The notes under the pieces were generated by a model. It did not search any database, was not told where the DNA came from, and was given only the letters and a program-made list of their open reading frames with translations. From Okeania sp. (GTDB lineage: Bacteria; Cyanobacteriota; Cyanobacteriia; Cyanobacteriales; Microcoleaceae), in NCBI RefSeq assembly GCF_035285525.1, contig NZ_JAYKGW010000014.1, positions 1 to 20,430 on the forward strand: a stretch of DNA of 20,430 nt, given 5' to 3'. Of the stretch, positions 743 to 19,785 are shown in pieces; position 1 is the first letter of the stretch; the number at the start of each line of letters is the position of its first letter. Made by a program: the position numbers and the translations under genes.

Positions 743-3175
743 ATGTTCGAGAAAATGAAATTTGTTCAGAAATGGACAGCGATTGCCCTCAGTGGCATCC
801 TACTGTCCCTTTCCCTGTGGACGTATCCAGCCCAAGCTGTCGAAGCGCCCCAGCGTTACGCCTACTTTGGCGATCTACATACTCACACCACCTATTCCCT
901 TGATGCCTACACGGGCTTCATGCGGAATGACCCCAACGCAGCCTACGAATTTGCGAGTGGTGGCTGCAATGTTGTGCCAGGTGGTCCACAAACCTGTGAC
1001 GAAACTCTTGGTATCCCCCTCCACAAACTAAAAAAGCCCCTAGACTTTGCTGCCGTTACCGATCACGCCGAATTTTTAGGTGAGATGGAAATGGCTATCA
1101 ATCCCGAATACGGCAAAAAGAAATACTACAATCCTCTAGCCATTGCTATTCGGAACAAACCCCAGTCTGAATTACTATCAACCTTGGTTTTTGTTAAGGT
1201 CTTGCAAGCAGCAAACCGTGGTAACAACCCCGAACGTAGTGACTATGGCTCCGGTCCCATTGCCGATGAAGCCAGAGTTAACGCATGGAAAAAAATTCAA
1301 CAGGCTACAGAAGACTACTACAAACCTGGAGAGTTTACGACGCTGCATGCCTTTGAATGGTCATCAGCTCCAGGCGGTGTCAACTTCCACCGGAACGTAA
1401 TTTTCGGCGACACTGTTCCTACGGACGAGAATGGTAACGTTTTGCCTGGAGTTCTCCCCGATGTGCCTGTCAGTGCCTTCGAGACTCAATCCCCTGAAGT
1501 ATTGTTGGAATATCTCAGTCAATACGAAGCTGGTGGTGCTAAAGTTCTAGCGATTCCACACAATGGTAACGCCAGTGCCAACAAAATGTTTATGCCCGAA
1601 CGGTGGGATGACGATACACCCATTGACCCTGAATGGGCAGCAAAGCGTGCCAAGTACGAACCATTAGTCGAAATTATGCAAATTAAGGGGACTTCAGAAA
1701 CCTTACCTGACTATGCCCCCGAAGACGAATTTGCGGATTTTGAATTAATGGAACTCACAGACCGGACTCGCGGACGCTACGGTTATGTGCGCGAAGCTTT
1801 GAAAAACGGTCTGCGCCATGAAGAAAACTTAGGAATCAACCCCTTCAAGTATGGTATTGTTGGTGCAACAGACAACCACAACGGTTCCCCTGGCGATACC
1901 TACGAAGATGACTATATGGGTTCCCACGGTTTCAGCGATGCCACCCCCGAACTGCGACAATTTAGTGAGATACCAGGCTGGGAGTCCTTCCCTTATCTAA
2001 ACCCTGGTGCCCTCACAGGGGTTTGGGCTGAACAAAACGAACGTGAACCGATTTTCAATGCCCTACAGCGTAAGGAGACTTTTGGCACTAGCGGTACGCG
2101 GACTCAGGTGCGCTTTTTCGGAGGTTGGAACTTCTCTGATAATCTGAACGAGCAGCCAGATGCAGTTGACACTGCTTACACTACCGGCGTACCAATGGGT
2201 CAGAATTTGCCAGTGCGGGCAAGTGAAGCACCGAAGTTTATGGTCTGGACAACGAAAGATCCCGATGGGGCTAACCTGGATCGGATTCAGATAGTTAAAG
2301 GTTGGACGAAACACGGAGTGACCTACGAGAAAATTTATGATGTGGTAGGTTCGGATGGTCGCACCTCCGATCCAGAAACCCACAGACTGCCTCCTCTTGA
2401 AAGTACGGTGAATGTGGTCAATGCTACTTACGAGAATACTATTGGCGAGCCAGAACTTTCTACAGTCTGGACTGACCCCGATTTTGACCCCACGGCACGA
2501 GCAGTCTACTATCTGCGGGCACTGGAAATTCCTACCCCCCGCTATTCCACCTATGACGCTGCAGAATTGGGCATCGTCCCTAACCCAGTTTCAGCAACGG
2601 AAATCCAAGAGCGGGCTTGGAGTTCGCCTATCTGGTATACCCCCAGTGAGGAAGACTTGACCGCAGGAGAGGCAAATTCCCTGACTGTTGACAAACTGGA
2701 AGCAGCGGGAATTCAACCCCTGACGACTCAGCAGATTAAAGACCGGATTTCTGGCCATAATTTCCAGATTGCCAACCGCATCACAGAGGAGGAGTTTATC
2801 GGTTTCTTCCAGCCATTGGGCTTGCGTTCGGAAGGTGAGTGGTTTTTAGGGTTGTCAGCTAGCTACGCACCAATGCACACCCACGAACTAGAAGCGGCAG
2901 TGCCGACAAAGTACGAGATTAAGGATAATGAACTTCACTTTAACCTCAAGGATGGTAGTGAGTTCGTCGCCCAACTCTTCCTTCAGGATGGGAAAATTCT
3001 GGCAGCTCGCAATGACGAAATTGGCTATGTTAACTATGAGTTGACAGACCTCGAACCAGAGATAGAGCGGTTGACTCTACCTCCTCAAATTTCTGAAAAG
3101 TTGAGTTCACAAGATTTTTGGGATTTAATCATTCAGCAAGTTGAGAAACATTATTCAATCAAGCAGATCAAGTAA
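743..3175 (+). CDS. Secreted DUF3604-family protein (PHP-like metal-dependent hydrolase fold), 810 aa, with an extra ~170-aa C-terminal region
   Basis: Long ORF behind a strong SD. Signal-peptide-like N-terminus (...LWTYPAQA/VEAP). Motifs GDLHTHTTYSLDA, AAVTDH, FEWSSAPGGVNFHRNVIF, AIPHNGN, VRFFGGW, LDRIQIVKGW and ERAWSSPIWY are what I recall for DUF3604. About 50% identical by eye to the next gene. Confidence 0.88.
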   Translation: MFEKMKFVQKWTAIALSGILLSLSLWTYPAQAVEAPQRYAYFGDLHTHTTYSLDAYTGFMRNDPNAAYEFASGGCNVVPGGPQTCDETLGIPLHKLKKPLDFAAVTDHAEFLGEMEMAINPEYGKKKYYNPLAIAIRNKPQSELLSTLVFVKVLQAANRGNNPERSDYGSGPIADEARVNAWKKIQQATEDYYKPGEFTTLHAFEWSSAPGGVNFHRNVIFGDTVPTDENGNVLPGVLPDVPVSAFETQSPEVLLEYLSQYEAGGAKVLAIPHNGNASANKMFMPERWDDDTPIDPEWAAKRAKYEPLVEIMQIKGTSETLPDYAPEDEFADFELMELTDRTRGRYGYVREALKNGLRHEENLGINPFKYGIVGATDNHNGSPGDTYEDDYMGSHGFSDATPELRQFSEIPGWESFPYLNPGALTGVWAEQNEREPIFNALQRKETFGTSGTRTQVRFFGGWNFSDNLNEQPDAVDTAYTTGVPMGQNLPVRASEAPKFMVWTTKDPDGANLDRIQIVKGWTKHGVTYEKIYDVVGSDGRTSDPETHRLPPLESTVNVVNATYENTIGEPELSTVWTDPDFDPTARAVYYLRALEIPTPRYSTYDAAELGIVPNPVSATEIQERAWSSPIWYTPSEEDLTAGEANSLTVDKLEAAGIQPLTTQQIKDRISGHNFQIANRITEEEFIGFFQPLGLRSEGEWFLGLSASYAPMHTHELEAAVPTKYEIKDNELHFNLKDGSEFVAQLFLQDGKILAARNDEIGYVNYELTDLEPEIERLTLPPQISEKLSSQDFWDLIIQQVEKHYSIKQIK

Positions 3176-3355
3176 ATCTACTCTGGCATCTCACAATAGT
3201 TGGGTAATTTCCCAACCCATTGATTGAGTGTAAGTCCAGCGACTGACAGATAGCTTCCTAACTAGAAGCGATCGCCAAAAAACCTGAACCAATAGAAACC
3301 TTGTCCAAAGTTCAAAAATCCAACAAAAAACAATTCCTACAGGAGTTATCAAAAA
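3172..3355 (+). promoter_or_regulatory. Leader copy L2 (long-hairpin variant), between the two DUF3604 genes
   Basis: GTAAATCTA 3172-3180 contains the TAA stop of gene 1. P1 is CTGG 3183-3186 / CCAG 3236-3239. P2 is CTCA 3190-3193 / TGAG 3225-3228. Also CAAT 3194-3197 / ATTG 3219-3222 and an apical stem GTTGGG 3199-3204 / CCCAAC 3211-3216. GCTTCCTAAC at 3253-3262, AGGAG SD at 3341-3345. Confidence 0.5.
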
Positions 3356-5536
3356 ATGAATCGAACGATTTCGCAAGTCCAACGGCTTTTGGTCGGACTT
3401 TGCACTCTCCTCTTCGTGGGTAGGATATTCCTCGGTGCTAATAGCGCCCTGGCAACTCCCTCGATCCCCGGAGAATACGACTTTATATTTCGGAAAAGCA
3501 ACTCAACCACTGTGCCTGAAGTAGATTGTCGCTTTTACCCAAATACCAAGTGCTACTCTCCCAATGTGCAGCATCCTCAACAGGTATTATGGGGCGATAC
3601 TCACCTGCATACCATTTATTCTTTTGATGCAGGAGCCGATGGAGCTCGTTTGACACCAGCCGATTCCTATGAATTTGCTAAAGGCAATGAAGTCACGATT
3701 GATGCAGGACAACCTGTCAAGCTTTCTCGTCCCTTAGATTTTTTAGTCGTTACCGATCACTCGGACGGATTAGGGGCTTTTGGGGATTTTTTGTATAATC
3801 TTCCCACAGATTGTGGTTCCGATCAAGAGCAGGTCAATACCTGGCATGAGATGATTCTTGCAGGTGGAGATGAGGCATCTCAAGCTTCATCAGAAATTAT
3901 TGCCAGTTTTTCCCAAGGAAACTTCCCCTTATGTATGTTTCCCTCTGCCGAAGAATTCCAAACTTTCTGGCAGGAAATTATTGATGCAGCAGAAGCTTAT
4001 AACGATCCGGGTAATTTTACCGCTGTGATTGGTTATGAGTGGACTTCGCTGTTGGGTGGCAACAACTTACACCGTAACATCATCTACCGCGATAATGGGG
4101 ATAAAGCCAAGCAACTGGTCCCCTACACCACAGACCAAAGCACTAATCCAGAATACCTTTGGGATTGGATGCAAAACTATGAGGATAAAACAGGTGGTAA
4201 TGTGCTAGCGATTCCTCACAATGGTAATCTCAGCAACGGTCTGATGTTTGCAGAAATCGATCATAATGGTAATCCTTTAACTGAAGACTATGCTAAACGG
4301 CGACAGCTTTGGGAACCCATCTATGAAGTTACCCAAATTAAAGGTGCCAGTGAGACCCATCCAGAAATATCTCCTGATGATGATTTTGCTGATTTTGAGG
4401 TTGCAGGTTGGGATATTGGCAACCTGGATCTGAGTTTCCCCAAACCCCCTGAAACCGATCCCGAAGCCCGCAAGAAGATGTTTGAGCATGAATATGCTCG
4501 TCCAGCTCTGAAAAATGGACTAAAATTTGAAGAAAGCCTGGGTGCTAACCCGTTCAAATTTGGTCTAGCAGGTGCATCAGATTCTCATATTGCTCTGTCG
4601 GCAGTCGAAGAGAATAGCTACATGGGTAAGTTTGTAAGTGAAGCTCCCAGTGCTGAACGAGCAGTAGAGGATCATGGCGGTCGTTTGGGATGGCAGTATG
4701 GAGCCTCTGGCTTTATAGGAGTTTGGGCTACGGAAAATACCCGTAAGGCTCTATTCGATGCGATGGAACGGCGAGAAGTTTATGGCACAACCGGACCGCG
4801 TATGAAGGTGCGTTTCTTTGGCGGTTGGGATTTTGCCAACTCCGATCTAGAGGATATGGCTGAAGTGGGCTACAACAAAGGAGTTCCTATGGGTAGCGAT
4901 TTACCTCCAGCACCTCCGGTTCCTGCAATATATCCACCCCCGATTCCGTCTCCAACCTTTATGGTGGCAGCGATGAAAGATTCTGATTCCTATGGAGCAA
5001 ATCTAGACCGGATTCAAATCATTAAAGGCTGGCTGGATGCTGAGGGCGAAACCCATGAGAAAATCTACGATGTAGCTTGGTCTGGCGGACGTACCCCTGA
5101 TACCGAAGGCAAAGTCCCCGCCATTGAAAACACTGTGGACACAGAAACGGCAACTTGGGACACCACCAGCGGTGCTGACTACCTGGAAACAGTCTGGACT
5201 GACGATGAGTTCGATCTCACCCAGCGAGCGTTTTATTACGCGCGGGTGTTGCAAGTTCCGACTCCTCGTTGGACGGACTACGACAAGGCGTTCTATGGCG
5301 ATGAGTGGGATGCTGCTTGTGCTGCTGCGGAAACAGACCCGGAATTAGACATCGTTTGTGATGAGATTCCCCTAACCTTACAGGAACGGGCGTATACCTC
5401 TCCGATTTGGTATTCTCCAGCTACAGTAGCAATGGAATCCACATCCGAGTCTACCCAACCTGTTGAAAATGTGGCTGAAGAAGATTTTTGGGATACAATC
5501 ATTCAGCAGGTTGAGAAACGTTATTCAACTAAGTAG
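3356..5536 (+). CDS. Secreted DUF3604-family protein, paralog 2 (726 aa)
   Basis: Signal-peptide-like N-terminus (...GANSALA/TPS). Same motif series as gene 1: GDTHLHTIYSFDA, VVTDH, YEWTSLLGGNNLHRNIIY, AIPHNGN, VRFFGGW, LDRIQIIKGW, ERAYTSPIWY. Confidence 0.88.
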   Translation: MNRTISQVQRLLVGLCTLLFVGRIFLGANSALATPSIPGEYDFIFRKSNSTTVPEVDCRFYPNTKCYSPNVQHPQQVLWGDTHLHTIYSFDAGADGARLTPADSYEFAKGNEVTIDAGQPVKLSRPLDFLVVTDHSDGLGAFGDFLYNLPTDCGSDQEQVNTWHEMILAGGDEASQASSEIIASFSQGNFPLCMFPSAEEFQTFWQEIIDAAEAYNDPGNFTAVIGYEWTSLLGGNNLHRNIIYRDNGDKAKQLVPYTTDQSTNPEYLWDWMQNYEDKTGGNVLAIPHNGNLSNGLMFAEIDHNGNPLTEDYAKRRQLWEPIYEVTQIKGASETHPEISPDDDFADFEVAGWDIGNLDLSFPKPPETDPEARKKMFEHEYARPALKNGLKFEESLGANPFKFGLAGASDSHIALSAVEENSYMGKFVSEAPSAERAVEDHGGRLGWQYGASGFIGVWATENTRKALFDAMERREVYGTTGPRMKVRFFGGWDFANSDLEDMAEVGYNKGVPMGSDLPPAPPVPAIYPPPIPSPTFMVAAMKDSDSYGANLDRIQIIKGWLDAEGETHEKIYDVAWSGGRTPDTEGKVPAIENTVDTETATWDTTSGADYLETVWTDDEFDLTQRAFYYARVLQVPTPRWTDYDKAFYGDEWDAACAAAETDPELDIVCDEIPLTLQERAYTSPIWYSPATVAMESTSESTQPVENVAEEDFWDTIIQQVEKRYSTK

Positions 5537-5561
5537 ATGAAGTAAATCTAACCTAGTATTT

Positions 5562-5658
5562 GTAGGTTGGGTTGAGGACACGTTTGCGGAGTATTTCCAA
5601 CGGAAAGACCCAACATTACCAAGATTTTTGTTGGGTTTCCTGCGTCAACCTAACCTAC
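5562..5658. mobile_element. MITE-A copy 2 (uninterrupted, ~97 nt)
   Basis: GTAGGTTGGGTTGAGG at the left end and CAACCTAACCTAC at the right end are inverted repeats. Collinear with 378-437 plus 553-589. Confidence 0.6.
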
Positions 5659-5673
5659 ATTTTTGATGATCAA

Positions 5674-5768
5674 GTAAATCTATCCTGGCATCTCACAATG
5701 GCTTGGGAAACTACCAAACCATTCAATGAGTCTAAGTTCTGGAGGAAGCGATCGCTTCCTAACTAGAG
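5674..5768 (+). promoter_or_regulatory. Leader copy L3 (orphan: no intact gene downstream; proposed P1 3' half mutated)
   Basis: GTAAATCTA 5674-5682, CTGG 5685-5688, CTCA 5692-5695 / TGAG 5727-5730, AATGG 5697-5701 / CCATT 5719-5723. The 3' partner of P1 reads TTCTGG instead of TCCAG. 16-nt palindrome GGAAGCGATCGCTTCC, then GCTTCCTAAC at 5754-5763. Confidence 0.4.
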
Positions 5769-5907
5769 ACCATAAACTTACGAACTCACTGTTTTTTTTA
5801 ACTGTTGTCTATATTACAAGAATTAACCGAGTTTGCCTGTGTAGATTTTTGAGAAAAATGAGACTAAAAGGAAGTATAATTATTGATGTTAATCTTGAAA
5901 GAAAATA

Positions 5908-6290
5908 ATGCCAGCCAAAGATACTTATCATCAAGCCGTTAAAAATGCTTTAATTAAAGATGGTTGGGTAATTAATTACTTTTGACCCTGATCCTATAAA
6001 TATGAAGAAGTTAAATTAGTTGCCGATCTGGCTGGCGAAAAAACAATTTCTACAACTAGAGAAGAGCAACAAATTGTGATTGAAATTAAAAGTTTCCTGA
6101 GCCGTTCTCCGATGCGTGAATTTCAAACAGCATGAGGACAATATTTAATTTGTCAACTATTACCCATCCGATTTATCAAGTTTATTTAGCAGTTGGTCAC
6201 AAAATTTATGAAAAGTTTTTTACACAAAATGCTATTCAATTAATTATCCAAAAATATCAAGTTTTACTATTAGTGATTAATATTAAATAA
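5908..6290 (+). pseudogene. xisH: xisH-like gene, decayed (in-frame stops and a frameshift)
   Basis: Starts MPAKDTYHQAVKNALIKDGWVI and continues ...EEVKLVADLAGEKTISTTREEQQIVIEIKSFLSRSPMREFQTA*GQYLI, typical of the XisH family. It is broken by TGA codons. The C-terminal part (HPIYQVYLAVGHKIYEKFF...) is in another frame. Confidence 0.7.
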
Positions 6291-6304
6291 CAGGAAATTA
6301 TCAA

Positions 6305-6646
6305 ATGGATAAGCTAATTAATTATCAAAATATCATCAAACAAATCTTAACTAATTATCAAAGAATATCAGAACAAATTCCCGATCCTGATATAAATGAA
6401 GTATTAATGTTTGATGACCAAAGAAGTTAATATCTTTGGTTTAATATTGGCTGGAAAAATGAGAAACGAATTAAAGCAATTTCTGTTTATGTTAGGATTA
6501 AAAATGAGAAAATTTATATTGAAGAAGATTCGACAGCAGAAGGAATTGCTAATGAATTATTAATAAAAAATGTACCGAAAGAGGATATTGTTTTAGCTTT
6601 CCACGATCCAGAAACTCCTAAATTAACTGAGTTTGCTGTTGTTTAA
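6305..6646 (+). pseudogene. xisI: xisI-like gene with one in-frame TAA (6428-6430)
   Basis: [112 protein letters not shown] matches the XisI pattern (GW...IE.D.TE.GIA.EL...[12 protein letters not shown]). It sits directly after xisH, the usual pairing. Confidence 0.7.
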
Positions 6647-6673
6647 ATTTATATTCCTGTGAATACTTACCTT

Positions 6674-6884
6674 ATAATTAACCGCGAACAACTCAAAAAC
6701 GAACTTGATTCTGTCGATGATGCAACAATTAATATCCTACATAATGTCAGAATAGCACTCAAAAAAAAATAGTGAATCTTCTAATTTTCTAACTAACTGG
6801 TTAGTCAATAATCTACTCAAAAATAGTGTTATTTATGAAAAAGATATTATTTCTCCTATTGATGAAAATTGGTCTAACTACTGA
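6674..6884 (+). pseudogene. Decayed paralog of the 11611-11823 antitoxin gene
   Basis: Collinear with 11611-11823 at high nucleotide identity. The ATG is replaced by ATA at 6674-6676. An A9 run (A8 in the intact copy) shifts the frame into TAG TGA. The upstream context 6655-6673 is also shared with 11591-11610. Confidence 0.7.
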
Positions 6885-6975
6885 AGCCGAATCATTAAAC
6901 AAAATTTGACAAATATTAATAAATATTGAAAATATACTGATGTTCTGCTGTTATTAAGCTATTGTTTATACTAAC

Positions 6976-7066
6976 AGGACTTACACGGGAGGTACTATAT
7001 ATAGGGTATTGGTGCGTTACATGATCGTGTAACGCACCCTACCAAGAGCGTTCATGTGTAAGTCCT
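6976..7066. mobile_element. MITE-B copy (AGGACTTACAC ... GTGTAAGTCCT terminal inverted repeats, internal GGTGCGTTAC/GTAACGCACC hairpin)
   Basis: 11-bp TIRs at 6976-6986 and 7056-7066. Internal 10-bp stem spans 7011-7038. Related copies are at 11465-11552 and 19786-20153. Solo ends are at 305-321 and 9887-9898. Confidence 0.6.
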
Positions 7067-7122
7067 AACTAAATTATCAAATACTTTTTTCCTGGCTCAC
7101 CAGTTCAAATGCAATCAATTTG

Positions 7123-7294
7123 GTAAATCAATCTATTGTCTGCCTTTTGCCTTCCCAACTGCTTTTCCTGGCACCTCGCAATAACGAGTGGTAAGTCCAG
7201 TAAGTGAGCGATCGCTTCCGACACCAGCGGAACTGAAAGCTTCCTAACAAAAGGTACTCGTACCAAAAAAAAATCAACTTTACAAGAATCAAAC
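7123..7294 (+). promoter_or_regulatory. Leader copy L4, directly upstream of the PLP-decarboxylase gene
   Basis: GTAAATC 7123-7129 plus a ~38-nt extension shared only with L5. P1 is CTGG 7168-7171 / CCAG 7197-7200. P2 is CTCG 7175-7178 / CGAG 7185-7188 with loop CAATAA. HIP1 palindrome present. GCTTCCTAAC at 7239-7248. Confidence 0.45.
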
Positions 7295-9556
7295 ATGAAA
7301 AAATTACAGTCTAAACTCACCCCCGACTATGACAGTAAGAAATTCAAGCAAGAAATCGGCAAAATGCTCGCTGATCGCGTCATCCCCAAATTAACCGACA
7401 AAAAACGGGCTAAAAACCCAACCACTATGGAAACAACAGACGGCACAATAGAAGTCTCCTCCGACGTAGCTGCCTGGTTTTTAGGACCCCGTGGTGAAAA
7501 CGTCGATTTGTTCTCTGAGTTAGTCTCCATCGCCCTTAACGACCATGTTTTCTGGCGACGTAACTTCCACCCCACCGATCCCTCCCCCCTCACTGAAAGC
7601 ATGAAGCGAGATGAGGCTTATCTCGATGCGGTAGACCTGATCAAAACTGAGTTCTACGCTTTGCTAGCCCAACTCAAAAAATCCGGCCCTTTTGCCAGTA
7701 TGCGCTACCAGGGACACATGACCTGGGACCAGACCTTACCGGGGATGGCGGGTTATTTCGCTGCTATGCTCTACAACCAAAATAATGTTGCCCTGGAAGC
7801 ATCCCCCATTACCACTGTATTAGAAGTAGAAGCTTGCGAAGATTTGTGTTATATGTTAGGCTATCAGGAGACAAGCCCTAAGCCCTGGGGACACCTCACC
7901 TGTGGCGGTTCGACAGCAAATATTGAAGCTCTGTGGGCAGCACGGAACCTTAAGTTCTATCCCTTCTCCTTCCGCAAGGGGTTAACAGCAGCAAATCCCA
8001 CTGTTGCAGAACAGTTTACGGTAAATCTTCCATCAGGTACTTCAGCTTTATTGAAAGATTTGGATAATTGGCAGATATTGAACCTATCGGTGGATGAAGT
8101 ATTGAATTTGTTTAACCGTGCTGTGGTAGACTATAATGTTGATCAAGTGACATTGAATGGAGCGATCGAACCTTATTCATTGCAAAATATGGGCTTTCTG
8201 GATTTTGCTCAAGAATTTTTAACAGATTCTACCGTGGGCGACCCCGTTGTTTTAGTACCTGCTTCCAAACATTATTCTTTGCCGAAAGGAGCAGCAATAT
8301 TAGGTTTGGGAGCGAAGAATATGCACACCGTACCCCTAGATATTTATGGTCGTATGGATGTGAATGAACTGAAAACAGCGATCGATGACTACCTTTCTGG
8401 CAACACAGACGATGGCAAAAAGCACCCCATCGTGACAGTGGTGGCAGTGTTTGGAACTACAGAAGAGGGCAATGTCGATCCATTGGTGGAGATTTTGAAT
8501 TTGCAGAAAGCCTATCGTGCAGCTAATGTAGACTTTGCGGTTCATGCAGATTGTGCTTGGGGTGGATATTTTGCCTCCCTATTGCGGGATGACGGAACTG
8601 GTGGTGTTCCCATCGCTGTCAGCCAATATGTAATCGATCAATATCAAGCGCTTGGTAGTACAGATACAATTACCATCGATCCTCACAAAACAGGTTATTT
8701 GCCCTATCCAGCGGGTGCTTTGTGCTATCGTAATATGGCGATGCGGAGTCTGATTGCTTTTGAAGCGCCTTATATCAACAGTGACGAGTCGGATGTTCCC
8801 CCCGAATGGTCCTTGGGTACTTATGGCATTGAAGGTTCAAAACCAGGAGCAGCAGCAGCAGGAGTTTATCTCAGCCATGCAGCTATCCCCTTAAACCTCC
8901 AAGGTTACGGTAAGTTGATGACTTTGACGGCTTACAACTGCAAAATATTCCATTGGAAACTATTGGAAGCGAGCCGACAAGAAACAGATTTCATTGTCGA
9001 GCCAACCCCTCATTGGCCTGAATCAAACCAAACCAAGGAAGAGTCGGTCAAGAATTTTCTGAACAAGCTGTCGGGCAAAACTCCTCAGTCGATCCTCAAC
9101 GATACCACGGGCACCGATCTAGCAACTTTGCGTGAAGCAGGAGCGGATTTGAATATCCTTACTTATGCTTTCAATTACAAAGTCAATGGTACCCTAGTCA
9201 CCGATCTTGACAAAGTGAATGCGTTGAACGAGCGAATTTACGATCGCATTAGTCTCAAGGCAGATGGTCGCGACATCTACAACTATAAGATTCTAGTTAG
9301 TACAACTTCTTTCTACAAGGATACTTATGGCGAAGTGTTTTTCGAGGATTACCGCAAGCGCCTCCTGGGAATGACTGCTGTTCCTGCCTCCAGTTCTGGT
9401 GCTGGCGAACATATCGTCGTGATGCGATCAACTATCATGGATCCATGGATTACCGAAGATGTAGATGGAAAACCATTTGTAGACTACATCGTGGCCGAGT
9501 TGTTCGACATTGTTCGGGAAGTGGTGGCTGAAGTTGTCGCAGAAGAAGCAGCTTAA
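7295..9556 (+). CDS. Pyridoxal-phosphate-dependent decarboxylase-like protein (group II family), unusually long at 753 aa
   Basis: Motifs LTCGGSTANIEALWAARN, VHADCAWGGY and TIDPHKTGYLPYPAGALCYRN (PLP-lysine D-x-H-K signature of group II decarboxylases). Uninterrupted ORF with codon-like composition. The start could alternatively be M24 or M45. Confidence 0.8.
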   Translation: MKKLQSKLTPDYDSKKFKQEIGKMLADRVIPKLTDKKRAKNPTTMETTDGTIEVSSDVAAWFLGPRGENVDLFSELVSIALNDHVFWRRNFHPTDPSPLTESMKRDEAYLDAVDLIKTEFYALLAQLKKSGPFASMRYQGHMTWDQTLPGMAGYFAAMLYNQNNVALEASPITTVLEVEACEDLCYMLGYQETSPKPWGHLTCGGSTANIEALWAARNLKFYPFSFRKGLTAANPTVAEQFTVNLPSGTSALLKDLDNWQILNLSVDEVLNLFNRAVVDYNVDQVTLNGAIEPYSLQNMGFLDFAQEFLTDSTVGDPVVLVPASKHYSLPKGAAILGLGAKNMHTVPLDIYGRMDVNELKTAIDDYLSGNTDDGKKHPIVTVVAVFGTTEEGNVDPLVEILNLQKAYRAANVDFAVHADCAWGGYFASLLRDDGTGGVPIAVSQYVIDQYQALGSTDTITIDPHKTGYLPYPAGALCYRNMAMRSLIAFEAPYINSDESDVPPEWSLGTYGIEGSKPGAAAAGVYLSHAAIPLNLQGYGKLMTLTAYNCKIFHWKLLEASRQETDFIVEPTPHWPESNQTKEESVKNFLNKLSGKTPQSILNDTTGTDLATLREAGADLNILTYAFNYKVNGTLVTDLDKVNALNERIYDRISLKADGRDIYNYKILVSTTSFYKDTYGEVFFEDYRKRLLGMTAVPASSSGAGEHIVVMRSTIMDPWITEDVDGKPFVDYIVAELFDIVREVVAEVVAEEAA

Positions 9557-9756: not shown

Positions 9757-9920
9757 GAACGGTTTACAGCAGTTTTCATTTCGGTAGACCACAGTAGGGA
9801 CGCCCTTATGCAACGTCCCTAAGAGATGCAAGGTTATCGCTCCGGTGGTTCATCGAGAGTGAAAAGCGCTGTATATTTTCTTGTGTTGCATAAGTCCTAA
9901 TAGAAACAACAATCATATCT

Positions 9921-11318
9921 ATGAACACCAAAAATCGTTTGACTTTCAGTTTTCTCATAACCTGGGTTTCTACCTGCTTACTAGCAGTAGTTATTGGATT
10001 GACTTCCAATGTTGCTCCTGCCAAAGCAGATGCGATATACCACGCTTTCGACGAATGTTTTGCCAATGTCACAGCCAAACTTCCTGAAGTTGAAGCAGCA
10101 GGATATAACTATATTCAAATTTCGCCTCCCAATAAAACACCATCACGGGAAGATGATGCCTGCACTTCAGACAAATACTGGTACATTCAGTATCAGCCTT
10201 ATGATTACGTTCTAGAGGGAAATCTAGGTAATGAGCAAGATTTAAAGAATTTGATTGATGCTGCTCACGAACGGGGAATTAAAGTTATTGCCGATGTGGT
10301 CTTTAATCACATGGCTAATTATCGTTTTTACAAAGATGTTGCACCTTTCCCCGAAGCATATCCGCTCTATCCAAAAAAGGAATATTTCCACGAGGCAAAA
10401 TGTATTTCCAATTATAATAATCCCTATGAAGTTGAAAATGATTGGTTATGCAGTCCCAATGACACGGAAGGATTGCCAGATTTGAGGACAGATTTACCTT
10501 ATGTGCAACAAAAACAGCATGAGTATATGCAAAAACTGATGGATATGGGAATTGATGGTTTCCGTTTTGATGCTGTCAAACATATTTCTGTTGAAGATTT
10601 GGAAAAGATCGTTGAAGTTATTCCTGAAGATAAATTTTACTATGGTGAAGCCATCGGACGCAACTTTGACGAGAGCATGAAATATATTCCAGTGTTTCCC
10701 AAAGTCACCGATTTTCAATTGGTTAATACTCTGAAAAGTGCTTTTGGTTACGGAGGAGACTTACGCTCTTTAATCAATCCAGCAGATACCCAGCGTGCTG
10801 TACCTGGTGACAATGCTGTTACTTTTGCTCGCAACCATGATACTTGGGCAATAGGACAGTTTGATAATTGGAAATTTGACAAGAACGACTTAGTTTTAGC
10901 CACAGCTTACGTTTTAGCCAGAAAAGAAGGAACGCCTTTGATCTTGACATTTGATGCTTTCGAGCCTACAATTGTTGCTGGAACTCAATTTCACGAAAAA
11001 ATGATAGCAGAACCACAATATTATCGCAATGGTAACGAAATTGCAGCTAGTGCGGATAGCCCAAATTTACTTTTTATTGAGCGTGGAGATAAGGGTTTAG
11101 CTATTATTAATAAAGCTGGTGAAACATTTGATGTGACTGCTGCTAAAATGCCTGGTTTGGCAGTGGGTTGTTACCGCGAGCTACAGTACGATTTTGAAAT
11201 GTGTGTTGACTACGGTGGTGATGGTCAAAAGTACATTAATAAATGGGGTTCTCCTAATCGCGGTGGAATTAATATTGGTTCTAGAACTGCATTGTTCTTT
11301 GTGAAAACGGACTTTTGA
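9921..11318 (+). CDS. Secreted alpha-amylase, glycoside hydrolase family 13
   Basis: Signal/anchor-like N-terminus. GH13 conserved regions are present: DVVFNHMAN, GFRFDAVKHI, YGEAIG, FARNHDT. Confidence 0.88.
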   Translation: MNTKNRLTFSFLITWVSTCLLAVVIGLTSNVAPAKADAIYHAFDECFANVTAKLPEVEAAGYNYIQISPPNKTPSREDDACTSDKYWYIQYQPYDYVLEGNLGNEQDLKNLIDAAHERGIKVIADVVFNHMANYRFYKDVAPFPEAYPLYPKKEYFHEAKCISNYNNPYEVENDWLCSPNDTEGLPDLRTDLPYVQQKQHEYMQKLMDMGIDGFRFDAVKHISVEDLEKIVEVIPEDKFYYGEAIGRNFDESMKYIPVFPKVTDFQLVNTLKSAFGYGGDLRSLINPADTQRAVPGDNAVTFARNHDTWAIGQFDNWKFDKNDLVLATAYVLARKEGTPLILTFDAFEPTIVAGTQFHEKMIAEPQYYRNGNEIAASADSPNLLFIERGDKGLAIINKAGETFDVTAAKMPGLAVGCYRELQYDFEMCVDYGGDGQKYINKWGSPNRGGINIGSRTALFFVKTDF

Positions 11319-11425: not shown

Positions 11426-11464
11426 AGCGATCGCCATACCATGAGTATTGATGTTAATCTTGAC

Positions 11465-11552
11465 AGAACTTACGAATTAACGCTATTAGTAGGGTGTATT
11501 AGCTGTAGCATAACGCACCAACACCCTAGAATACTGTCTTTGCGTAAGTCCT
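11465..11552. mobile_element. MITE-B copy (degenerate left end)
   Basis: AGAACTTACGAA at 11465-11476 and TGCGTAAGTCCT at 11541-11552. The interior ACGCTATTAGTAGGGTG ... TAACGCACC is collinear with the element at 19786-20153. Confidence 0.5.
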
Positions 11553-11610
11553 GTTAATAAAGCTTTTATCGCCCACTAAAAATAATAACTCACCCCTGAA
11601 TGCTTACCTT

Positions 11611-11823
11611 ATGATTAACCGCGAACAACTCAAACACGAACTTGATTCTGTCGATGATGCAACTATTAATATCCTACATGATGTTATCATAGCACTTAAA
11701 AAAAATGGTGAATCTTCTAATTTTATAACTAACTGGTTAGTGAATAATCCACTCAAAAACAGTGTTATTTATGAAAAGGATATTATTTCTCCTATTGATG
11801 AAAATTGGGATGTTGATTTATGA
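11611..11823 (+). CDS. DUF2281-like type II antitoxin (70 aa)
   Basis: The stop overlaps the PIN gene start (ATGA at 11820-11823). MINREQLKHELDSVDDATINILHDVIIALKK ... IYEKDIISPIDENWDV resembles the helical N-terminus plus D-x-x-x-P-hydrophobic-x-E/D-x-W C-terminus of DUF2281 antitoxins as I recall them. Confidence 0.6.
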   Translation: MINREQLKHELDSVDDATINILHDVIIALKKNGESSNFITNWLVNNPLKNSVIYEKDIISPIDENWDVDL

Positions 11824-12206
11824 TTATTCTTGATACCCATGCTTGGATTTGGTGGTTGACAGAATCTCCTAAACTTTCCAATAGAGCAATCAAAACTATT
11901 GAGAATAATACTATCATCGGGATTGCTGCTATTAGCTGTTGGGAATTATCTATGCTAGTGGCAAAAAATAGAATTGAATGATCAATGGATATTCAAATTT
12001 GGATGAGTTTAGCTTTCCAACATCCTCAAGCTACACTTTTACCCCTTACTCCAGAAATTGCAGTTTTATCAACTCGATTACCTGGAGAATTTCATGGAGA
12101 TCCTGCGGATAGATTAATTGTTGCTAGTAGTTTGGTTCATAAAGTTCCACTGATTTCCAAAGATGAAAAAATCAAGAAATGGGGATATTTACCTGTCATT
12201 TGGTAA
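11820..12206 (+). pseudogene. PIN-domain (VapC-like) toxin gene with an in-frame TGA at 11979-11981
   Basis: The single frame reads MIILDTHAWIWWLTESPKLSNRAIKTIENNTIIGIAAISCWELSMLVAKNRIE*SMDIQIWM...FHGDPADRLIVASSLVHKVPLISKDEKIKKW. The PIN acidic residues are in the expected context (LDTH, WE, DPADR). The ORF track only reports the part after the stop (11985-12206). Confidence 0.7.
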
Positions 12207-12281
12207 ATCAATCTATTTTCTGCCTTTTGCCTACCAGACTACTTTTCCTGACGCCTCCCAATAACGAGTGGTAAGTCTTGC
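12203..12281 (+). promoter_or_regulatory. Leader copy L5 (orphan, degenerate)
   Basis: By eye roughly 85-90% identical to L4 (7122-7200). P1 reads CTGA.../...TCTTG and P2 reads CTCC/CGAG, so both proposed stems are broken. The PIN stop TAA (12204-12206) lies inside GTAAATC. Confidence 0.4.
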
Positions 12282-12322
12282 AAGAGAGCGATCGCCTCTA
12301 GTTAAGAAGCGATCGCTCTCTT
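12282..12322. repeat. 14-bp perfect inverted repeat built on two HIP1 sites
   Basis: AAGAGAGCGATCGC 12282-12295 and GCGATCGCTCTCTT 12309-12322, with a 13-nt loop. Confidence 0.6.
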
Positions 12323-12371
12323 CAAATTTTGCTTTAATTCTTACTTTTGAATCCATGAATTTCTAGCCTTG

Positions 12372-12432
12372 GGGGCTGGTTTAGGTAAATCTGATATCAA
12401 CCCCCGAAATCTCTGGAAAAACCCGCCCCTAC
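12372..12432. repeat. Second copy of the GC-rich hairpin element, just 3' of thyX
   Basis: GGGGCTGGTTTAGGTAAATCTGA ... AAAACCCGCCCCTAC is collinear with 158-218 (GGGGCGGGTTTATGTAAACCTGA ... AAAACCCGCCCCTAC). One stem mismatch. It lies 15 nt beyond the thyX stop. Confidence 0.55.
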
Positions 12433-12446
12433 GATATTTGGAATTT

Positions 12447-14984
12447 CTATGGTGCTAATTTACCTTTACCAAGTCTATTTTTTTCATACCATTCTGCTAT
12501 ACTAGGAACCCAATCTTGAACATGAGGCCACATTAACTCACATAATTTTTGAATTTCTAATTGAGCATTCTTTTTAAAACGTAAATCCAAAAAATGTAGC
12601 AAACTACGGGAATTAAAACTAACAATAAAATGCTGACGATAATCAAAAGGAATTATTCCTCTAGCGTGTTCTTCAGACATTCCTAAATCCATAGCAATTT
12701 TATATTTATTAGCTGCCTCTAAACACCACTGTAAATCTTGTTCTCGTTGTTGAGGAGAATAATAATATTTTTTACCTTGACGGTCAAAATATTCTCCCAC
12801 CGGACGTAAGTAAAAAGCAGTTTCTATATCCGTTTTTCCCTCTGCCACTGCAATAACTTTTCCGGAACAGTAACGATAACTTTGTACATCAAAAGAATTA
12901 TGAACAACTAAACCATTAGCGATAAAATTATGTTCTGGATGTTCTACTTCAATATCATAAGTAATTTCTTTCCCAAATTTTTCAATAGATTCTATTTCTA
13001 CAAAATCAGGGAACAGGGAACAGGGAACAGGGAACAGAGAATTAATAGGATTTATAGTTGATTTTGGATAGGAATTTTCTGCTATCCACTTTTCATCCAA
13101 GATTTCTTTTTCCCAAAAATTAATGTCTCGTTGAGCAATTTTATTACCAGTTAATCCCACTTCACATAATTGAGTTTTATTCTTCTTTATCAGGAATGGG
13201 GAACAGGGAACAGGGAACAGATAATCAATATAATTTATAGTTGATTTTGAGTGGGAATTTACTGGCATCCACTTTTCATCTAACATTTCTTGTTCCATAA
13301 AACTAATTTCCTGTGGAGGAATTTTATTACCAGTTAATTGCACTTCACATAATTGAGTATTATTATCAAATTCCTTCAACCTTTTCCACCCTTGATTAGT
13401 CCAAAACTGGTGTTCTAATGTAGCTCTTATTTCTTTACCAGAAACAGTTTTTATTGTGTAAGTTTCTTGTTCGCCATTAATATAAATATTAGTAATTTTA
13501 CTAGAAACAAGTTGGTTAGTTTTAGTATCTAAAGTCAAAATAGTACGTCTAGATATACTCTCTTGCATATATTTTGCATCATTAGAAGTTTGTTGATGTT
13601 TTCTCCCGTAATGCCATAAATTAGCTAATTTTTCAATAGTTTCTTCATAATATTTCTCTCCTCTATATAAAGACGAATGCCCAAATCTAACCTTTGTATT
13701 ACCCGACAAACAACAACCTATTCTATGAGTTCTTGCTTGTTGCATCACACTATGAGGAAAAAATCCACAATTAAAAGTAATTTGCGGGTGTTCAAGACAA
13801 TTTCCACAGACAATAACTTTTCCATTTCTTCTAACTAATAAAGCACCAGTAGAAACAGAAGCGCAATAAACTTTACCTTTGTAATTAACAAAACCTTCTT
13901 TTCTTCCTGCATCTTTATTTTCTTGACAATATTCAACAGGATATGTAGAAATTTCAGAGCTATGTAATCTCCAGCAAGGTTTCTGATTTTTATCCGCTTC
14001 ACACTCATTTTTATTATTTAAAGTTAGGTTTGCCCTAAAACCATTAATATGTGCAGTTGCTTGAATTATTTCTAAAGCATTTTTATTAGTTGAATCATAG
14101 CACCAACTTTTTTCTTTTATATTTGTACCATCACTGTTTTGTAAGCCATCCCAAAAACTTGCTATTAAATTTGCTGGTAATTCTAATAACCAAATTGGCA
14201 CAGTCTTATCTTCAGAATTAGAAAAATTTCGATGAATCCATGAAGCTAAGGATTTGTGTTCAATTACAAACCTATTTTCCTGAGTTTTTTCGATGTCTAA
14301 ATTCAATGAAAGTAAATAATCTATTTTGCCAGAATTTTGTATTGTAAATCTAACAACATCAGAATTTTTATTTATACTTCTCAACCCATCTCTATAGAAA
14401 AAACCTGCTATTCTAAAAGCTGTTTCTAAGTCGATATTTTCTGGTAGATCCTTAGGTAACTTTCTGGAACTATTTTTTAAATAGCAATTCAATAAATAAC
14501 GTACTGGTGTATTATAAACATCTTCAGCTTTTTTGCTAAACCATTCTGTCCAATTATTTTCTGTACTTGTTCTTCGGGAAACTATCATCCTATGGTCTTT
14601 TGTGACTAGCAAATCAATAAAATTGCTCTGAACATAATATAATTCATCATCTATATCATACTCATAAAGTTTACTTGGCTTTTCAAACCAAGCCTCTTTT
14701 GTCTCAGGATTTACAGCTAGTAACTCCATAGCATAAGTTATTTTATTCCAACTAATCCAACCTTGATTTGTTAACACTTCAGTATCAGCAGAATAGCATC
14801 CAAAATGGCCGCGATCGCCTGCTAAAAGTCGCTTAACAATAATTTCCCCACATTTTGCTTCCGAAGGCCAAGTATTTTGTTCATCAAAGACAAATCCTTC
14901 ACTATAATCTTGATGTAAAGCTGCATAAATTAGTTGTTGAGGATTAGGTGTTTTGTTAATAATTTCTACTCGAAATTTATCCAT
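12447..14984 (-). CDS. thyX: FAD-dependent thymidylate synthase ThyX precursor carrying two inteins (845 aa; exteins total ~240 aa)
   Basis: Exteins are aa 1-62 (...LLAGDRGHFG), aa 396-424 (CLEHPQITFNCGFFPHSVMQQARTHRIG[C]) and aa 697-845 (SFDVQSYRY...). Joined, they recreate the ThyX signature R-H-R-x(2-3)-S-x(4)-S-x-R-Y. They are separated by two Hint-type insertions. Confidence 0.88.
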   Translation of the reverse strand: MDKFRVEIINKTPNPQQLIYAALHQDYSEGFVFDEQNTWPSEAKCGEIIVKRLLAGDRGHFGCYSADTEVLTNQGWISWNKITYAMELLAVNPETKEAWFEKPSKLYEYDIDDELYYVQSNFIDLLVTKDHRMIVSRRTSTENNWTEWFSKKAEDVYNTPVRYLLNCYLKNSSRKLPKDLPENIDLETAFRIAGFFYRDGLRSINKNSDVVRFTIQNSGKIDYLLSLNLDIEKTQENRFVIEHKSLASWIHRNFSNSEDKTVPIWLLELPANLIASFWDGLQNSDGTNIKEKSWCYDSTNKNALEIIQATAHINGFRANLTLNNKNECEADKNQKPCWRLHSSEISTYPVEYCQENKDAGRKEGFVNYKGKVYCASVSTGALLVRRNGKVIVCGNCLEHPQITFNCGFFPHSVMQQARTHRIGCCLSGNTKVRFGHSSLYRGEKYYEETIEKLANLWHYGRKHQQTSNDAKYMQESISRRTILTLDTKTNQLVSSKITNIYINGEQETYTIKTVSGKEIRATLEHQFWTNQGWKRLKEFDNNTQLCEVQLTGNKIPPQEISFMEQEMLDEKWMPVNSHSKSTINYIDYLFPVPCSPFLIKKNKTQLCEVGLTGNKIAQRDINFWEKEILDEKWIAENSYPKSTINPINSLFPVPCSLFPDFVEIESIEKFGKEITYDIEVEHPEHNFIANGLVVHNSFDVQSYRYCSGKVIAVAEGKTDIETAFYLRPVGEYFDRQGKKYYYSPQQREQDLQWCLEAANKYKIAMDLGMSEEHARGIIPFDYRQHFIVSFNSRSLLHFLDLRFKKNAQLEIQKLCELMWPHVQDWVPSIAEWYEKNRLGKGKLAP
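12897..13712 (-). mobile_element. ThyX intein 2 (~272 aa), mini-intein without a recognisable endonuclease
   Basis: Starts (C)CLSGNTKVRF. Block B is ATLEH. Ends ...ITYDIEVEHPEHNFIANGLVVHN, followed by +1 Ser697. The first residue is ambiguous between Cys424 and Cys425. Confidence 0.8.
12999..13364 (-). repeat. In-frame tandem duplication (2 x 183 nt = 2 x 61 aa) inside intein 2, each unit ending in GGGAACA heptamer repeats
   Basis: Unit 1 is 13182-13364 (NNTQLCEVQLTGNKIPPQEISFMEQEMLDEKWMPVNSHSKSTINYIDYLFPVPCSPFLIKK). Unit 2 is 12999-13181 (NKTQLCEVGLTGNKIAQRDINFWEKEILDEKWIAENSYPKSTINPINSLFPVPCSLFPDFV). On the + strand (GGGAACA)x4 lies at 13009-13036 and x3 at 13199-13219. Confidence 0.85.
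13800..14798 (-). mobile_element. ThyX intein 1 (333 aa) with a LAGLIDADG homing-endonuclease domain
   Basis: Starts CYSADTEVLTNQGW (block A). Block B is LLVTKDH. LAGLIDADG-like motifs are RIAGFFYRDG and LIASFWDGLQNSDG. Ends ...VYCASVSTGALLVRRNGKVIVCGN, followed by +1 Cys396. Confidence 0.85.
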
Positions 14985-15010
14985 AAAATTATTCTAAAGT
15001 TTAGCTATTA

Positions 15011-15038
15011 AGTCAAAAGTCAAAAGTCAAAAGTAAGA
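15011..15038. repeat. STRR-type heptamer tract (AGTCAAA)x3 plus one degenerate unit
   Basis: AGTCAAA at 15011-15031 and AGTAAGA at 15032-15038, starting 27 nt upstream of the thyX start codon. Confidence 0.8.
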
Positions 15039-15219
15039 AAAATCTATTTTATTGTAGGGGTTTGGTCTCCAAATCCATTTGGGCTTGATAAAGAGCAAAG
15101 CAATTTATTATTATTACACTATAAAAATTGACTATCTAAAAAATTATAGATTTTTGTTATTTTTGACTTTTATAACACTAGGCAAATATATTAATCTTAA
15201 ATATATTTGTGAAAAAACT

Positions 15220-15276
15220 GTAGGGGTTTGGTTTCCAAATCTCATTTATGCTTGGGTTTAGAGACCAAACCCCTAC
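15220..15276. repeat. 16-bp-stem palindromic element (GTAGGGGTTTGGTTTC ... GAGACCAAACCCCTAC)
   Basis: Arms are 15220-15235 and 15261-15276 with one mismatch. A solo left arm GTAGGGGTTTGGTCTC lies at 15054-15069. Confidence 0.6.
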
Positions 15277-15353
15277 GATTAAATGTTAAAACCTATTTAG
15301 TATTGCAATAGGTTAGAACATTTACAAATACTCAAAGTCAGTCAGACATCATT

Positions 15354-15388
15354 TTTGACTTTTGACTTTTAAATCTTGACTTTTGACT
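15354..15388. repeat. STRR-type heptamer tract (TTTGACT)x5, inverse of 15011-15038
   Basis: Five heptamers, the third degenerate (TTTAAAT). It is the reverse complement of the AGTCAAA tract and ends 8 nt before the ATG at 15397. Confidence 0.8.
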
Positions 15389-15396
15389 TAAAAATA

Positions 15397-19022: not shown

Positions 19023-19290
19023 AAGAGATAATCCTTTTCGAGAAAAGTTGTATGTCCCTACGACCACCAAAAACGTTGTGTCCTGGAATAACCCAGTGCC
19101 TTCACCCAAGAAGGCCAACAAATAGTCCGGGCTAGGGAAATACCCAGAGGTGTTATCGTTTTTGGCTCCATGCATGCATGGTCTAGCCAACTCTTAGTTA
19201 GACGTTGGGTTGTCCAAGCTGCGCGTCTTTAGACCGCAGAAGTTGACCTAAGTCAAAACTCTCTTCGCTATTCGTGGTTTATACACTTTT
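19023..19290 (-). ncRNA. Candidate omega-RNA scaffold (plus guide at its 5' end) of the IsrB-like element; boundaries approximate
   Basis: It is in the position expected for IscB/IsrB omega-RNAs, immediately 5' of the ORF on the same strand. Several hairpins read on the - strand: CTGCGGTC-TAAA-GACGCGCAG (~19221-19241), TTGGCT...AGCCAA enclosing the 14-nt palindrome CCATGCATGCATGG (~19163-19190), CCTTC-TTGGGT-GAAGG (~19098-19113), CTTTTC..GAAAAG (~19034-19047). The 56-codon N-terminal extension of ORF 18192..19190 lies here and has no IscB-like sequence. Confidence 0.45.
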
Positions 19291-19583: not shown

Positions 19584-19667
19584 ACAGCGTTCGTCTCATA
19601 AATTATCAGTAATTATCCGTATAATACAGCGTTCGTCTCATAAATTATCAGTAATTATCCGTATAAT
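19584..19667. repeat. Perfect 42-bp tandem duplication
   Basis: ACAGCGTTCGTCTCATAAATTATCAGTAATTATCCGTATAAT occurs at 19584-19625 and again, identical, at 19626-19667. Confidence 0.9.
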
Positions 19668-19785
19668 TCACTGAAGCTGTACTCAAATTTTAATAAATAG
19701 ACTATAATAAGAAGGATTTACGCAGAGCCACCATTTCTATTAGGAGCAAATCTTTGCCTTCTATAGGTAACTCATTTTCTAACAC

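Follow-up and report, generated by a model that had tools for sequence, protein, structure and literature searches.

The window analysed here is the full 20,430-bp contig NZ_JAYKGW010000014.1 of a metagenome-assembled genome (MAG) of the cyanobacterium Okeania sp. Its plus strand carries the 3' end of a HupE/UreJ gene (1-151; the C-terminus of its product matches HupE of L011 and L025, and the gene is conserved ahead of the first H1 hairpin described below), two DUF3604 genes, a tyrosine-decarboxylase-like, pyridoxal phosphate (PLP)-dependent decarboxylase gene (7295-9556) and an alpha-amylase gene (9921-11318). Both DUF3604 products, DUF3604-1 (743-3175, 810 aa) and DUF3604-2 (3356-5536, 726 aa), have a signal peptide and match Pfam PF12228 (E 1e-190 and 1.9e-221, respectively), and the two proteins aligned only at ~37-38% (tblastn against relatives). 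The decarboxylase matches Pfam PF00282 and PF21391, with NCBIfam matches under the curated cut-offs. The spacers between these genes contain a repeated sequence that an initial annotation had described as a conserved, hairpin-forming leader and candidate cis-regulatory RNA, with five copies (L1 to L5) and one fragment (L0). Set beside at least 40 copies from other genomes, this leader proves to be a mosaic of separate parts, the constant one of which is a single bulged hairpin, named H1 here, whose anatomy, distribution, orientation, sequence constraint and pairing potential were observed directly. Our tentative reading is that H1 may well be an RNA hairpin that punctuates the transcripts of one gene cluster.

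H1 is normally 57 nt long and has the layout CTGG-CAT-CTCA-CAATGG-apex-CCATTG-ac-TGAG-TGTAAGT-CCAG, with the ends CCTGGCAT and TAAGTCCAGCA present in nearly every copy. In minimum-free-energy (MFE) structures, the bulges are a T after CA, two nucleotides after CCATTG and TAAGT before CCAG. The apex is the variable portion: lengths of 6, ~25 or ~200 nt are tolerated, the longest being inserts at L005 (4888-5140) and L028 (three-digit numbers denote comparison loci). Four apex types are mixed among positions, and three full-length copies of L060 share derived changes.

All five copies and L0 were found on the plus strand where the initial annotation had placed them; coordinates are given here as the H1 span, from CTGG to CCAG. 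L2 (3183-3239), situated between the DUF3604-1 stop (3175) and the DUF3604-2 start (3356), is a canonical 57-nt copy that scores 79.1 bits with R1, a covariance model built from H1, and folds with an MFE of -16.4 kcal/mol (z -3.2). L3 (5685-5741, 61.8 bits), also canonical in type, lies downstream of DUF3604-2 with a miniature inverted-repeat transposable element (MITE) between them, and its outer stem is broken (CCAG to TCTG). The apex is missing from L1, L4 and L5, which are 31-33 nt long. L1 (616-646, 31 nt, 36.3 bits, repeat family D2) is located 96 nt before the DUF3604-1 start and represents the ancestral order of HupE, H1 and DUF3604, as in L002, L056, L059 and L060. L4 (7168-7200, 41.3 bits), 94 nt before the decarboxylase start, belongs to a truncated 'delta' type (CTCG/CGAG) that also occurs in L005 (2303-2334) and L060 (5464-5497). 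L5 (12248-12280, 25.4 bits, E 0.0015) is a degenerate delta copy after a vapC-like open reading frame (ORF); it lies in a duplication (7118-7218 versus 12198-12298, 87% identical), and the next gene, thyX, is convergent. L0 (350-367, repeat family D15) comprises only the left arm (CTGGCATCTCACAATAGT), is cut by a MITE and is 100% identical to 3183-3200. An additional H1 remnant on the plus strand (9889-9920), consisting of the right arm and a short leader, was found just upstream of the alpha-amylase start (9921) and was judged by eye to be homologous to 12342-12386 of the Dapis locus L053, in which an intact copy (12309-12357) ends 30 nt before the amylase ATG. The inner-stem variants reported initially (CTCA/TGAG, TTCA/TGAG and CTCG/CGAG) and the broken stems of L3 and L5 were also recovered. 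The composite pattern CTGGCA-N(14-44)-TAAGTCCAG-N13-GCTTCC occurred three times in the window and not once in any of 100 dinucleotide-preserving shuffles.

A search with R1 over 226 kb from Okeania (the window), Dapis, Moorena, Symploca, a Nostocaceae MAG and Rivularia yielded 46 H1 copies, all of which were on the gene strand; the minus-strand matches were just the palindromic apex of two copies. A follow-up search over 66 kb added two further copies, both in metagenome contig L061. Every copy occupies an intergenic spacer of one conserved cluster found in at least six genera, and H1 is present in most spacers between co-oriented cluster genes as well as behind the last gene. No copies were detected in the non-cluster flanks of the searched loci or in window positions 12.3-20.4 kb. 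This restriction to one cluster and one strand is unlike plain MITE behaviour, in line with the initial annotation, as scattered, unoriented copies were not seen in the DNA searched. The cluster loci were fetched via DUF3604 homologs, and a co-oriented cluster was found in L053, L056, L058, L059, L060, L062 and L063. Its order starts with CDF cation efflux, PpiC-type rotamase and HupE/UreJ genes, followed by one to five DUF3604 genes, and the downstream part comprises sulfatases, 5'-nucleotidase, FGE, M20 peptidase, LodA-like protein, amylase and PLP decarboxylases; an AraC-type gene sometimes adjoins it. Such a gene content suggests a metal-linked system of mostly secreted hydrolases.

Scans of larger collections gave the same context. 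With a strict pattern, 12 hits were obtained among 185,579 species genomes, of which three were real, the pattern having been too strict; these three (Symploca SIO2C1, Okeania SIO3B5 and Okeania SIO3I5) were all syntenic with the window. When metagenome contigs were scanned with GTAAGTCCAG-N7-GCGATCGC, with no genes specified, 40 loci were retrieved, 12 of which carry the element, and all 12 showed the cluster gene context, with genes for DUF3604, DUF1254/DUF1214, sulfatases, 5'-nucleotidase-like proteins, PLP decarboxylases, and HupE or an FGE-type sulfatase maturase beside it. Zero matches were obtained in viral contig and plasmid collections. H1 had no match in a permissive cmscan against Rfam 15 (E up to 1), in agreement with the initial annotation, which recognised no known riboswitch class in the motif; the sole Rfam overlap was a chance miRNA match on the HIP1 hairpin of L5 (27 bits, gathering score 72). 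No description of the motif was found in literature searches on small dispersed repeats and HupE/Zur.

Within the spacers, H1 keeps as closely to the upstream stop as to the downstream start. In 17 of 40 copies, no more than 20 nt separate its first base from the stop codon before it, and about 30 of 46 copies end 34-160 nt ahead of a co-oriented start (start codons were assigned heuristically). H1 therefore has the placement of an intercistronic hairpin, in sense orientation, near the upstream stop and between co-oriented, probably co-transcribed ORFs. Copies also occur behind the last gene of a run (L046, window L5, L050 and L055). In L046, an intact H1 lies in the 3' untranslated region (UTR), and a separate bidirectional terminator hairpin is found ~60 nt further on, before a convergent recombinase gene. 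Tandem copies are present in L053 (12217 and 12309). The initial description of a 5' leader specifically is not consistent with these upstream-stop distances and terminal copies. Likewise, L3 and L5, previously regarded as orphans, both flank a 3' end and are not orphans, because H1 also follows last genes. The L3 ortholog in Okeania SIO3I5 (L011 4949-5004) is intact, lacks the MITE and lies right after the DUF3604-2 stop, 152 nt before a 948-aa ORF.

Both the sequence and the pairing of H1 appear to be constrained. Across 36 arm positions, identity to window L2 is 92% in Moorena producens and 86% in L061 (86-97% for the arms in these two loci), while the adjacent DUF3604 ortholog is ~63% identical in these two and its fourfold-degenerate sites are only 37-39% identical; the conservation of the arms alongside such divergence therefore indicates strong purifying selection on sequence. 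Pairing is kept in 83% of alignment cells, compared with 15-47% when partner columns are slid, and the covariation score (0.112 versus 0.083 in shuffles) was reached by none of 500 shuffles. Compensatory changes affect three or more pairs, including C-G to A-U in six copies, A-U to G-C in three and G-C to A-U in six, which upholds the initial view of a conserved, hairpin-forming element with some compensatory changes. In L060 and L061 the lower stem has been re-formed in another register, and on one contig, L039, compensated variants stand beside the canonical type. As these variants coexist and any apex length is tolerated, a folded single strand is favoured over two protein half-sites. RNAalifold predicted no consensus structure from the mixed-length alignment, probably owing to the truncated copies.

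Taken together, H1 may well act as a sense-strand RNA hairpin in the cluster mRNAs, punctuating the transcript through processing, stability or factor binding, and this is the reading that we tentatively favour because H1 is confined to one co-oriented cluster, has a single orientation, lies close to stop codons, occurs in a 3' UTR before a terminator and is strongly constrained. In the mechanism proposed, H1 would fold into a bulged stem within the mRNA, between co-oriented cistrons and behind the last gene. The lower stem (CUGG/CCAG, CA/UG, CUCA/UGAG and the conserved UAAGU bulge) would be read sequence-specifically by a trans-acting RNase or RNA-binding protein, the apex being dispensable. 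Its most likely job would be to mark out or shield the 3' ends left by processing of the upstream cistron, so that individual genes could become uncoupled in mRNA level or translation. In the window scan, no terminator-like site was present in the spacer between DUF3604-1 and DUF3604-2 or just past DUF3604-2. Additional support comes from the related cluster of Nodosilinea, in which the genes abut and are tightly packed, as in an operon.

Repeated intergenic cis-acting hairpins are a known kind of element, and H1, a candidate of this kind, is limited to a subset of filamentous cyanobacteria. Operon-internal repeated hairpins include the ANTAR targets of the Enterococcus eut locus and the ribonucleic antiterminator (RAT) sites of BglG/SacY-type antiterminators. 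Like H1, they are small bulged hairpins that are repeated in sense before several genes of a cluster and have conserved unpaired bases; however, each of them coincides with an intrinsic terminator, and the cluster itself encodes the RNA-binding regulator, whereas no terminator follows H1 and no such regulator was recognised. The RNase III hairpins of the phage T7 early genes and the inverted repeats at the 3' ends of chloroplast mRNAs serve in processing and stability, not termination. They resemble H1 in being intercistronic stems with an internal loop, and their cleavage leaves the upstream message with a protective hairpin, although classic RNase III substrates have longer and less interrupted stems than H1.

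Several observations weigh against a role of H1 in the mRNA. The reading assumes that H1 is transcribed, and it is from sequence that binding or cutting by a factor and an effect on mRNA fate are predicted; no candidate binding factor was recognised. The covariation expected by the initial annotation is borne out by the score given above, but not by measures that count pairs or pair types, which were not significant, and the copies are non-independent, many being orthologs or recent duplicates. Strand asymmetry, considered as a means of distinguishing RNA from DNA, was uninformative and was set aside: there were 43 G-U cells versus 35 A-C cells (19 versus 10 for helices 1-2 alone), and the mean MFE was -13.0 kcal/mol for the plus strand versus -12.9 for the minus strand. 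The two strands fold equally well, and the evidence separates neither RNA nor single-stranded DNA from the other. For single copies, the folding z-score lies between +1.3 and -5.4. Furthermore, the R1 search found no H1 in the related clusters of Microseira, Nodosilinea and Oscillatoriales RM2_1_1, in which the DUF3604 genes are tail-less (see below) or abutting; H1 is therefore not essential to the cluster. Finally, the patterns used in both whole-collection scans might miss diverged copies elsewhere in these genomes.

An alternative is that H1 functions as a double-stranded DNA site, either bound by a cluster regulator (such as the AraC-type protein of Dapis and L058) as its operator or activator site, or serving as a promoter module with an abutting -10 box. 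The arms are conserved in sequence and not in pairing alone, as would be expected of such a site, but the spacing between them varies from 0 to ~200 nt, and the symmetric compensatory changes found beside the canonical type in L039 fit base pairing better. In L053, L058 and L064 the cluster has an AraC-family gene beside it; however, L064 has this gene without H1, and no AraC gene is present within 10 kb in M. producens or the Nostocaceae MAG. In 16 of 42 copies a TAnnnT hexamer is found with its end exactly one base ahead of CCTGG, compared with 0-5 at any other offset, yet these copies are mostly from one lineage (AAATCTAYGMT), none of them is a window copy, and a scan for consensus promoters was unenriched. 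A DNA site is thus an unlikely explanation of H1.

It is similarly unlikely that H1 is a selfish or relic repeat, that is, a decayed MITE- or REP-like palindrome spread within the cluster by tandem duplication, unequal crossing-over and gene conversion. The conserved ends, variable interior, apex insertions of ~200 nt (L005b and L028), partial copies (L0 and 9889-9920) and tandem copies (L053) have the appearance of such a repeat, which co-duplicates with gene 3' ends and is absent from some related clusters; the mixed apex types and the derived changes shared in L060 suggest exchange inside a genome. Gene conversion within a genome nevertheless cannot explain arms that are ~90% identical between genera with saturated synonymous sites, and the presence of one orientation in one cluster, with none in flanking DNA, also argues against it. 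No target-site duplications were seen, and no transposase or RAYT gene is associated. The enterobacterial repetitive extragenic palindrome (REP) and bacterial interspersed mosaic element (BIME) sequences are among the closest known parallels of H1, and the REP in the malE-malF intercistronic region stabilises the upstream mRNA. As in REP/BIME sequences, H1 is a short, imperfect, extragenic palindrome of conserved sequence that lies just past stop codons near gene 3' ends, between genes that are, for H1, probably co-transcribed, also after last genes, and is not a terminator. REPs differ in having hundreds of copies genome-wide, often as inverted doublets (REPINs), and in being linked to RAYT, whereas H1 was found, in the DNA searched, in one cluster and in one orientation; among the 46 copies there were no inverted pairs, and no RAYT or Y1-transposase gene was called in the loci.

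The initial annotation had also offered a MITE-derived module as an alternative. Two MITE families are present in the window. The first, a long GTAGGTTGGGTTGAGG...CCTCAACCTAACCTAC hairpin, lies directly upstream of L1 and L3 (the same MITE at 372-600 and 5557-5660). In the second (6975-7066, 11460-11555 and 19784-20134), members of which lie in either orientation, AGGACTTAC/GTAAGTCCT ends enclose a GGTGCGTTAC...AACGCACC core. The right arm of H1 shares the octamer GTAAGTCC with an end of this second family, which also resembles H1 in its conserved ends and variable interior. However, the GTAAGTCCT MITE is distributed independently of H1, in both orientations: some loci have the MITE but no H1, and the H1-bearing loci of Moorena and Nostocaceae lack it. 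On these grounds of distribution and orientation, a derivation of H1 from this MITE was rejected. The H1 arms are poor inverted repeats of each other, pairing only in blocks (CTGG, CTCA and CAAT) with indels, and no flanking direct repeats were seen, although no empty site defines the boundaries of the element.

The other parts of the former leader appear to be separable from H1. H2 is a second hairpin between two HIP1 sites, the HIP1/GCTTCCYAAC block forming its loop; intact H2 in relatives reads GAGCGATCGC-TTCCYAACYAGAG-GCGATCGCTC. In L2 it is degenerate (3243-3278, plus strand, loop GCTTCCTAAC), and other pieces are at 650-669, 5744-5768, 7204-7248 (with a 25-nt insert) and 12283-12321 (loop inverted). 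The mini-hairpin insert of 25 nt found in L4 recurs in L014, L025, L031 and L037, and the loop is inverted in L011b as well as in window L5, which is visible in the window as an inverted repeat (I3, 5740-5773 versus 12291-12324). In 'type-B' spacers (L039c, L047a and L056), unrelated sequence takes the place of H2. The GCTTCCYAAC blocks were found at 660-669, 3253-3262, 5754-5763 and 7239-7248, as annotated initially, but their assignment to the core does not stand, since they are part of another hairpin, which many copies have inverted or lack. A third hairpin, H3 (28 nt, GAACC..GGAC-loop-GTCC..GGTTC; 3286-3313, plus strand), precedes DUF3604-2-type and sulfatase genes, in the proximal part of their leaders. 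It was identified in 12 copies, with 87.5% of cells paired and modest covariation (0.229 versus 0.147 in shuffles, reached by 4 of 500), and it recurs, without H1, ahead of the third DUF3604 gene of L058. Closer to the gene, a hairpin AAUUCC-UACA-GGAGUU (3332-3347, plus strand) holds the Shine-Dalgarno site of DUF3604-2, and the L2 leader shows it paired whether folded by MFE or as a centroid; its AATTCC-N-AGGAG block is kept in Microseira, which is without H1. Intrinsic termination by H1 or H2 was considered and rejected, as no terminator-like site coincided with any H1 or H2 in the window and the total was no higher than in shuffles. A sigma-70-type promoter in H1 was rejected as well: the scan placed no site at the elements and was unenriched over shuffles, and inspection by eye of the position 17 nt past the TTGACT of the 3' arm showed no -10 box that could serve it.

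At the upstream border, the GTAAATC that had been regarded as part of the shared core belongs to the 3' end of the upstream gene. It is the post-stop sequence (TAG-ATGAAGTAAATCTA) of genes whose products share a tail ending in ..EDFWDTIIQQVEKHYSTK, and it is absent from copies behind HupE, sulfatase or FGE genes. In DUF3604-1 the TAG is mutated, and the TAA within GTAAATC (3173-3175) is now the stop codon. The 3' coding end of this gene with its post-stop bases (3081-3182, plus strand, tail ..DFWDLIIQQVEKHYSIKQIK followed by the stop, GTAAATC included) has a paralogous block at 5451-5552 (repeat D5, 77% identical over 109 nt). The C-terminal tail, ..ENVxxEDFWDTIIQQVEK[H/R]YSTK before the stop, is common to diverged DUF3604 paralogs and unrelated DUF1254/DUF1214 proteins, and was observed in the window (3081-3175 and 5451-5536) and in L015, L046, L037, L056, L059 and L060. 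Wherever the full tail was seen in the loci examined, H1 comes after it, and DUF3604 genes with a truncated tail (..IIQEVIR at the stop) or with none have no H1 behind them. A sorting or interaction role of the peptide is possible, as is an exchange of this 3' gene end along with H1. A word-index protein search with the 44-aa tail gave no candidates. The 3' end of the L031 sulfatase gene resembles a frameshifted version of the tail DNA.

With the parts separated in this way, it is quite unlikely that H1 and the downstream blocks form a riboswitch or attenuator in a 5' leader that would sense a ligand or protein and switch translation or termination, with GCUUCC pairing to the Shine-Dalgarno site. 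The fairly regular spacing of 34-160 nt before starts in ~30 of 46 copies, the coherence of the downstream genes (mostly secreted hydrolases), the conserved bulge nucleotides and the extra hairpins (H3 and the Shine-Dalgarno hairpin) in leaders of the DUF3604-2 type are all compatible with such a device. However, instead of a multi-helix aptamer there is one hairpin without a junction, whose apex is dispensable, and no terminator follows H1 that could serve as an expression platform, none being conserved. In addition, copies occur behind terminal genes, 17 copies leave no room for a promoter between the upstream stop and H1, H3 and the Shine-Dalgarno hairpin persist without H1, related clusters function without H1 altogether, and Rfam gives no match. 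The Shine-Dalgarno sites reported initially (731-736 and 3341-3345) were confirmed, whereas their proposed pairing with CUUCC is not conserved, because the block is inverted (L5 and L011b) or replaced (L039c, L047a and L056) in many copies; the partner of the Shine-Dalgarno site in L2 is instead the neighbouring AAUUCC. H1 is most likely not a metabolite-sensing riboswitch, and the initial cis-regulatory reading is not supported in this sense.

A role as a folded single-stranded-DNA recombination site, similar to attC and bounding hydrolase or toxin-antitoxin cassettes moved by a tyrosine recombinase, is very unlikely. H1 shares with attC its location 3' of each ORF in one orientation, an imperfect palindrome with conserved arms, unpaired bases and a variable centre, and an association with toxin-antitoxin modules, which are directly followed by H1 in the window (L5) and in L057 (9827). 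Moreover, the gene content between copies varies among strains, the unit of tail plus H1 is common to unrelated gene families, and an Xer-like tyrosine recombinase gene (L046, 3952-4932, minus strand), convergent with a DUF1254/DUF1214 gene, lies 126 nt past an H1 copy. On the other hand, attC sites have R''/R' cores and an integron integrase, and H1 has neither: no RYYYAAC or GTTRRRY cores were found, and the L046 recombinase is under all NCBIfam cut-offs, with 69 bits on TIGR02249 versus an integron-integrase cut-off of 265. The L046 gene was the single nearby recombinase among the loci, with none called within 10 kb in L053, L056, L059, L060 and L061, and H1 positions are orthologous and stable across genera, as in the order from HupE through H1 to DUF3604. 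Very unlikely, too, is a non-integron cassette system in which H1 and the tail-coding 3' gene end together would be the folded-DNA recombination site, reshuffling arrays of secreted-hydrolase and toxin-antitoxin genes in filamentous cyanobacteria.

Other features of the window were recorded during the analysis. The segment 6660-7218 is duplicated at 11597-12298 (87-95% identical), with L4 and L5 inside the two copies, and the vapC part of the first copy has been displaced by a MITE. The xisH/xisI-like and vapB/vapC-like ORFs (5908-6880 and 11597-12207) are decayed, with internal stop codons; xisH/xisI genes occur again within the same cluster in L057 and L059. The thyX gene (12447-14984, minus strand) contains an intein (Thy1 and Intein_splicing domains) and an internal 172-nt tandem repeat (13010-13364, 85% identical). 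Runs of the heptamer AAAGTCA flank nested inverted repeats (15008-15391) upstream of an HD-domain gene. An IscB-like ORF with an RRXRR domain is located at 18192-19190 (minus strand), and a sub-threshold HEARO RNA match (19047-19247; 37.4 bits, gathering score 83, E 1.2e-4) overlaps its 5' end. An exact 42-nt tandem duplication was found at 19584-19667.

If H1 is indeed an RNA signal, as we tentatively favour, a motif absent from Rfam 15 would coordinate or uncouple the expression of a large, conserved and uncharacterised cluster (DUF3604, DUF1254/DUF1214, sulfatases and nucleotidase) in the bloom- or mat-forming marine cyanobacteria Okeania, Moorena and Dapis. For DUF3604 itself, a sequence search found no solved structure and the literature searched contained no useful mention; by marking genes that belong together, H1 offers a handle on the function of this family. 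The unit of H1 and C-terminal tail in unrelated enzyme families hints at how the 3' ends of genes are exchanged, and the cluster may provide a compact case for how long cyanobacterial operons are punctuated.

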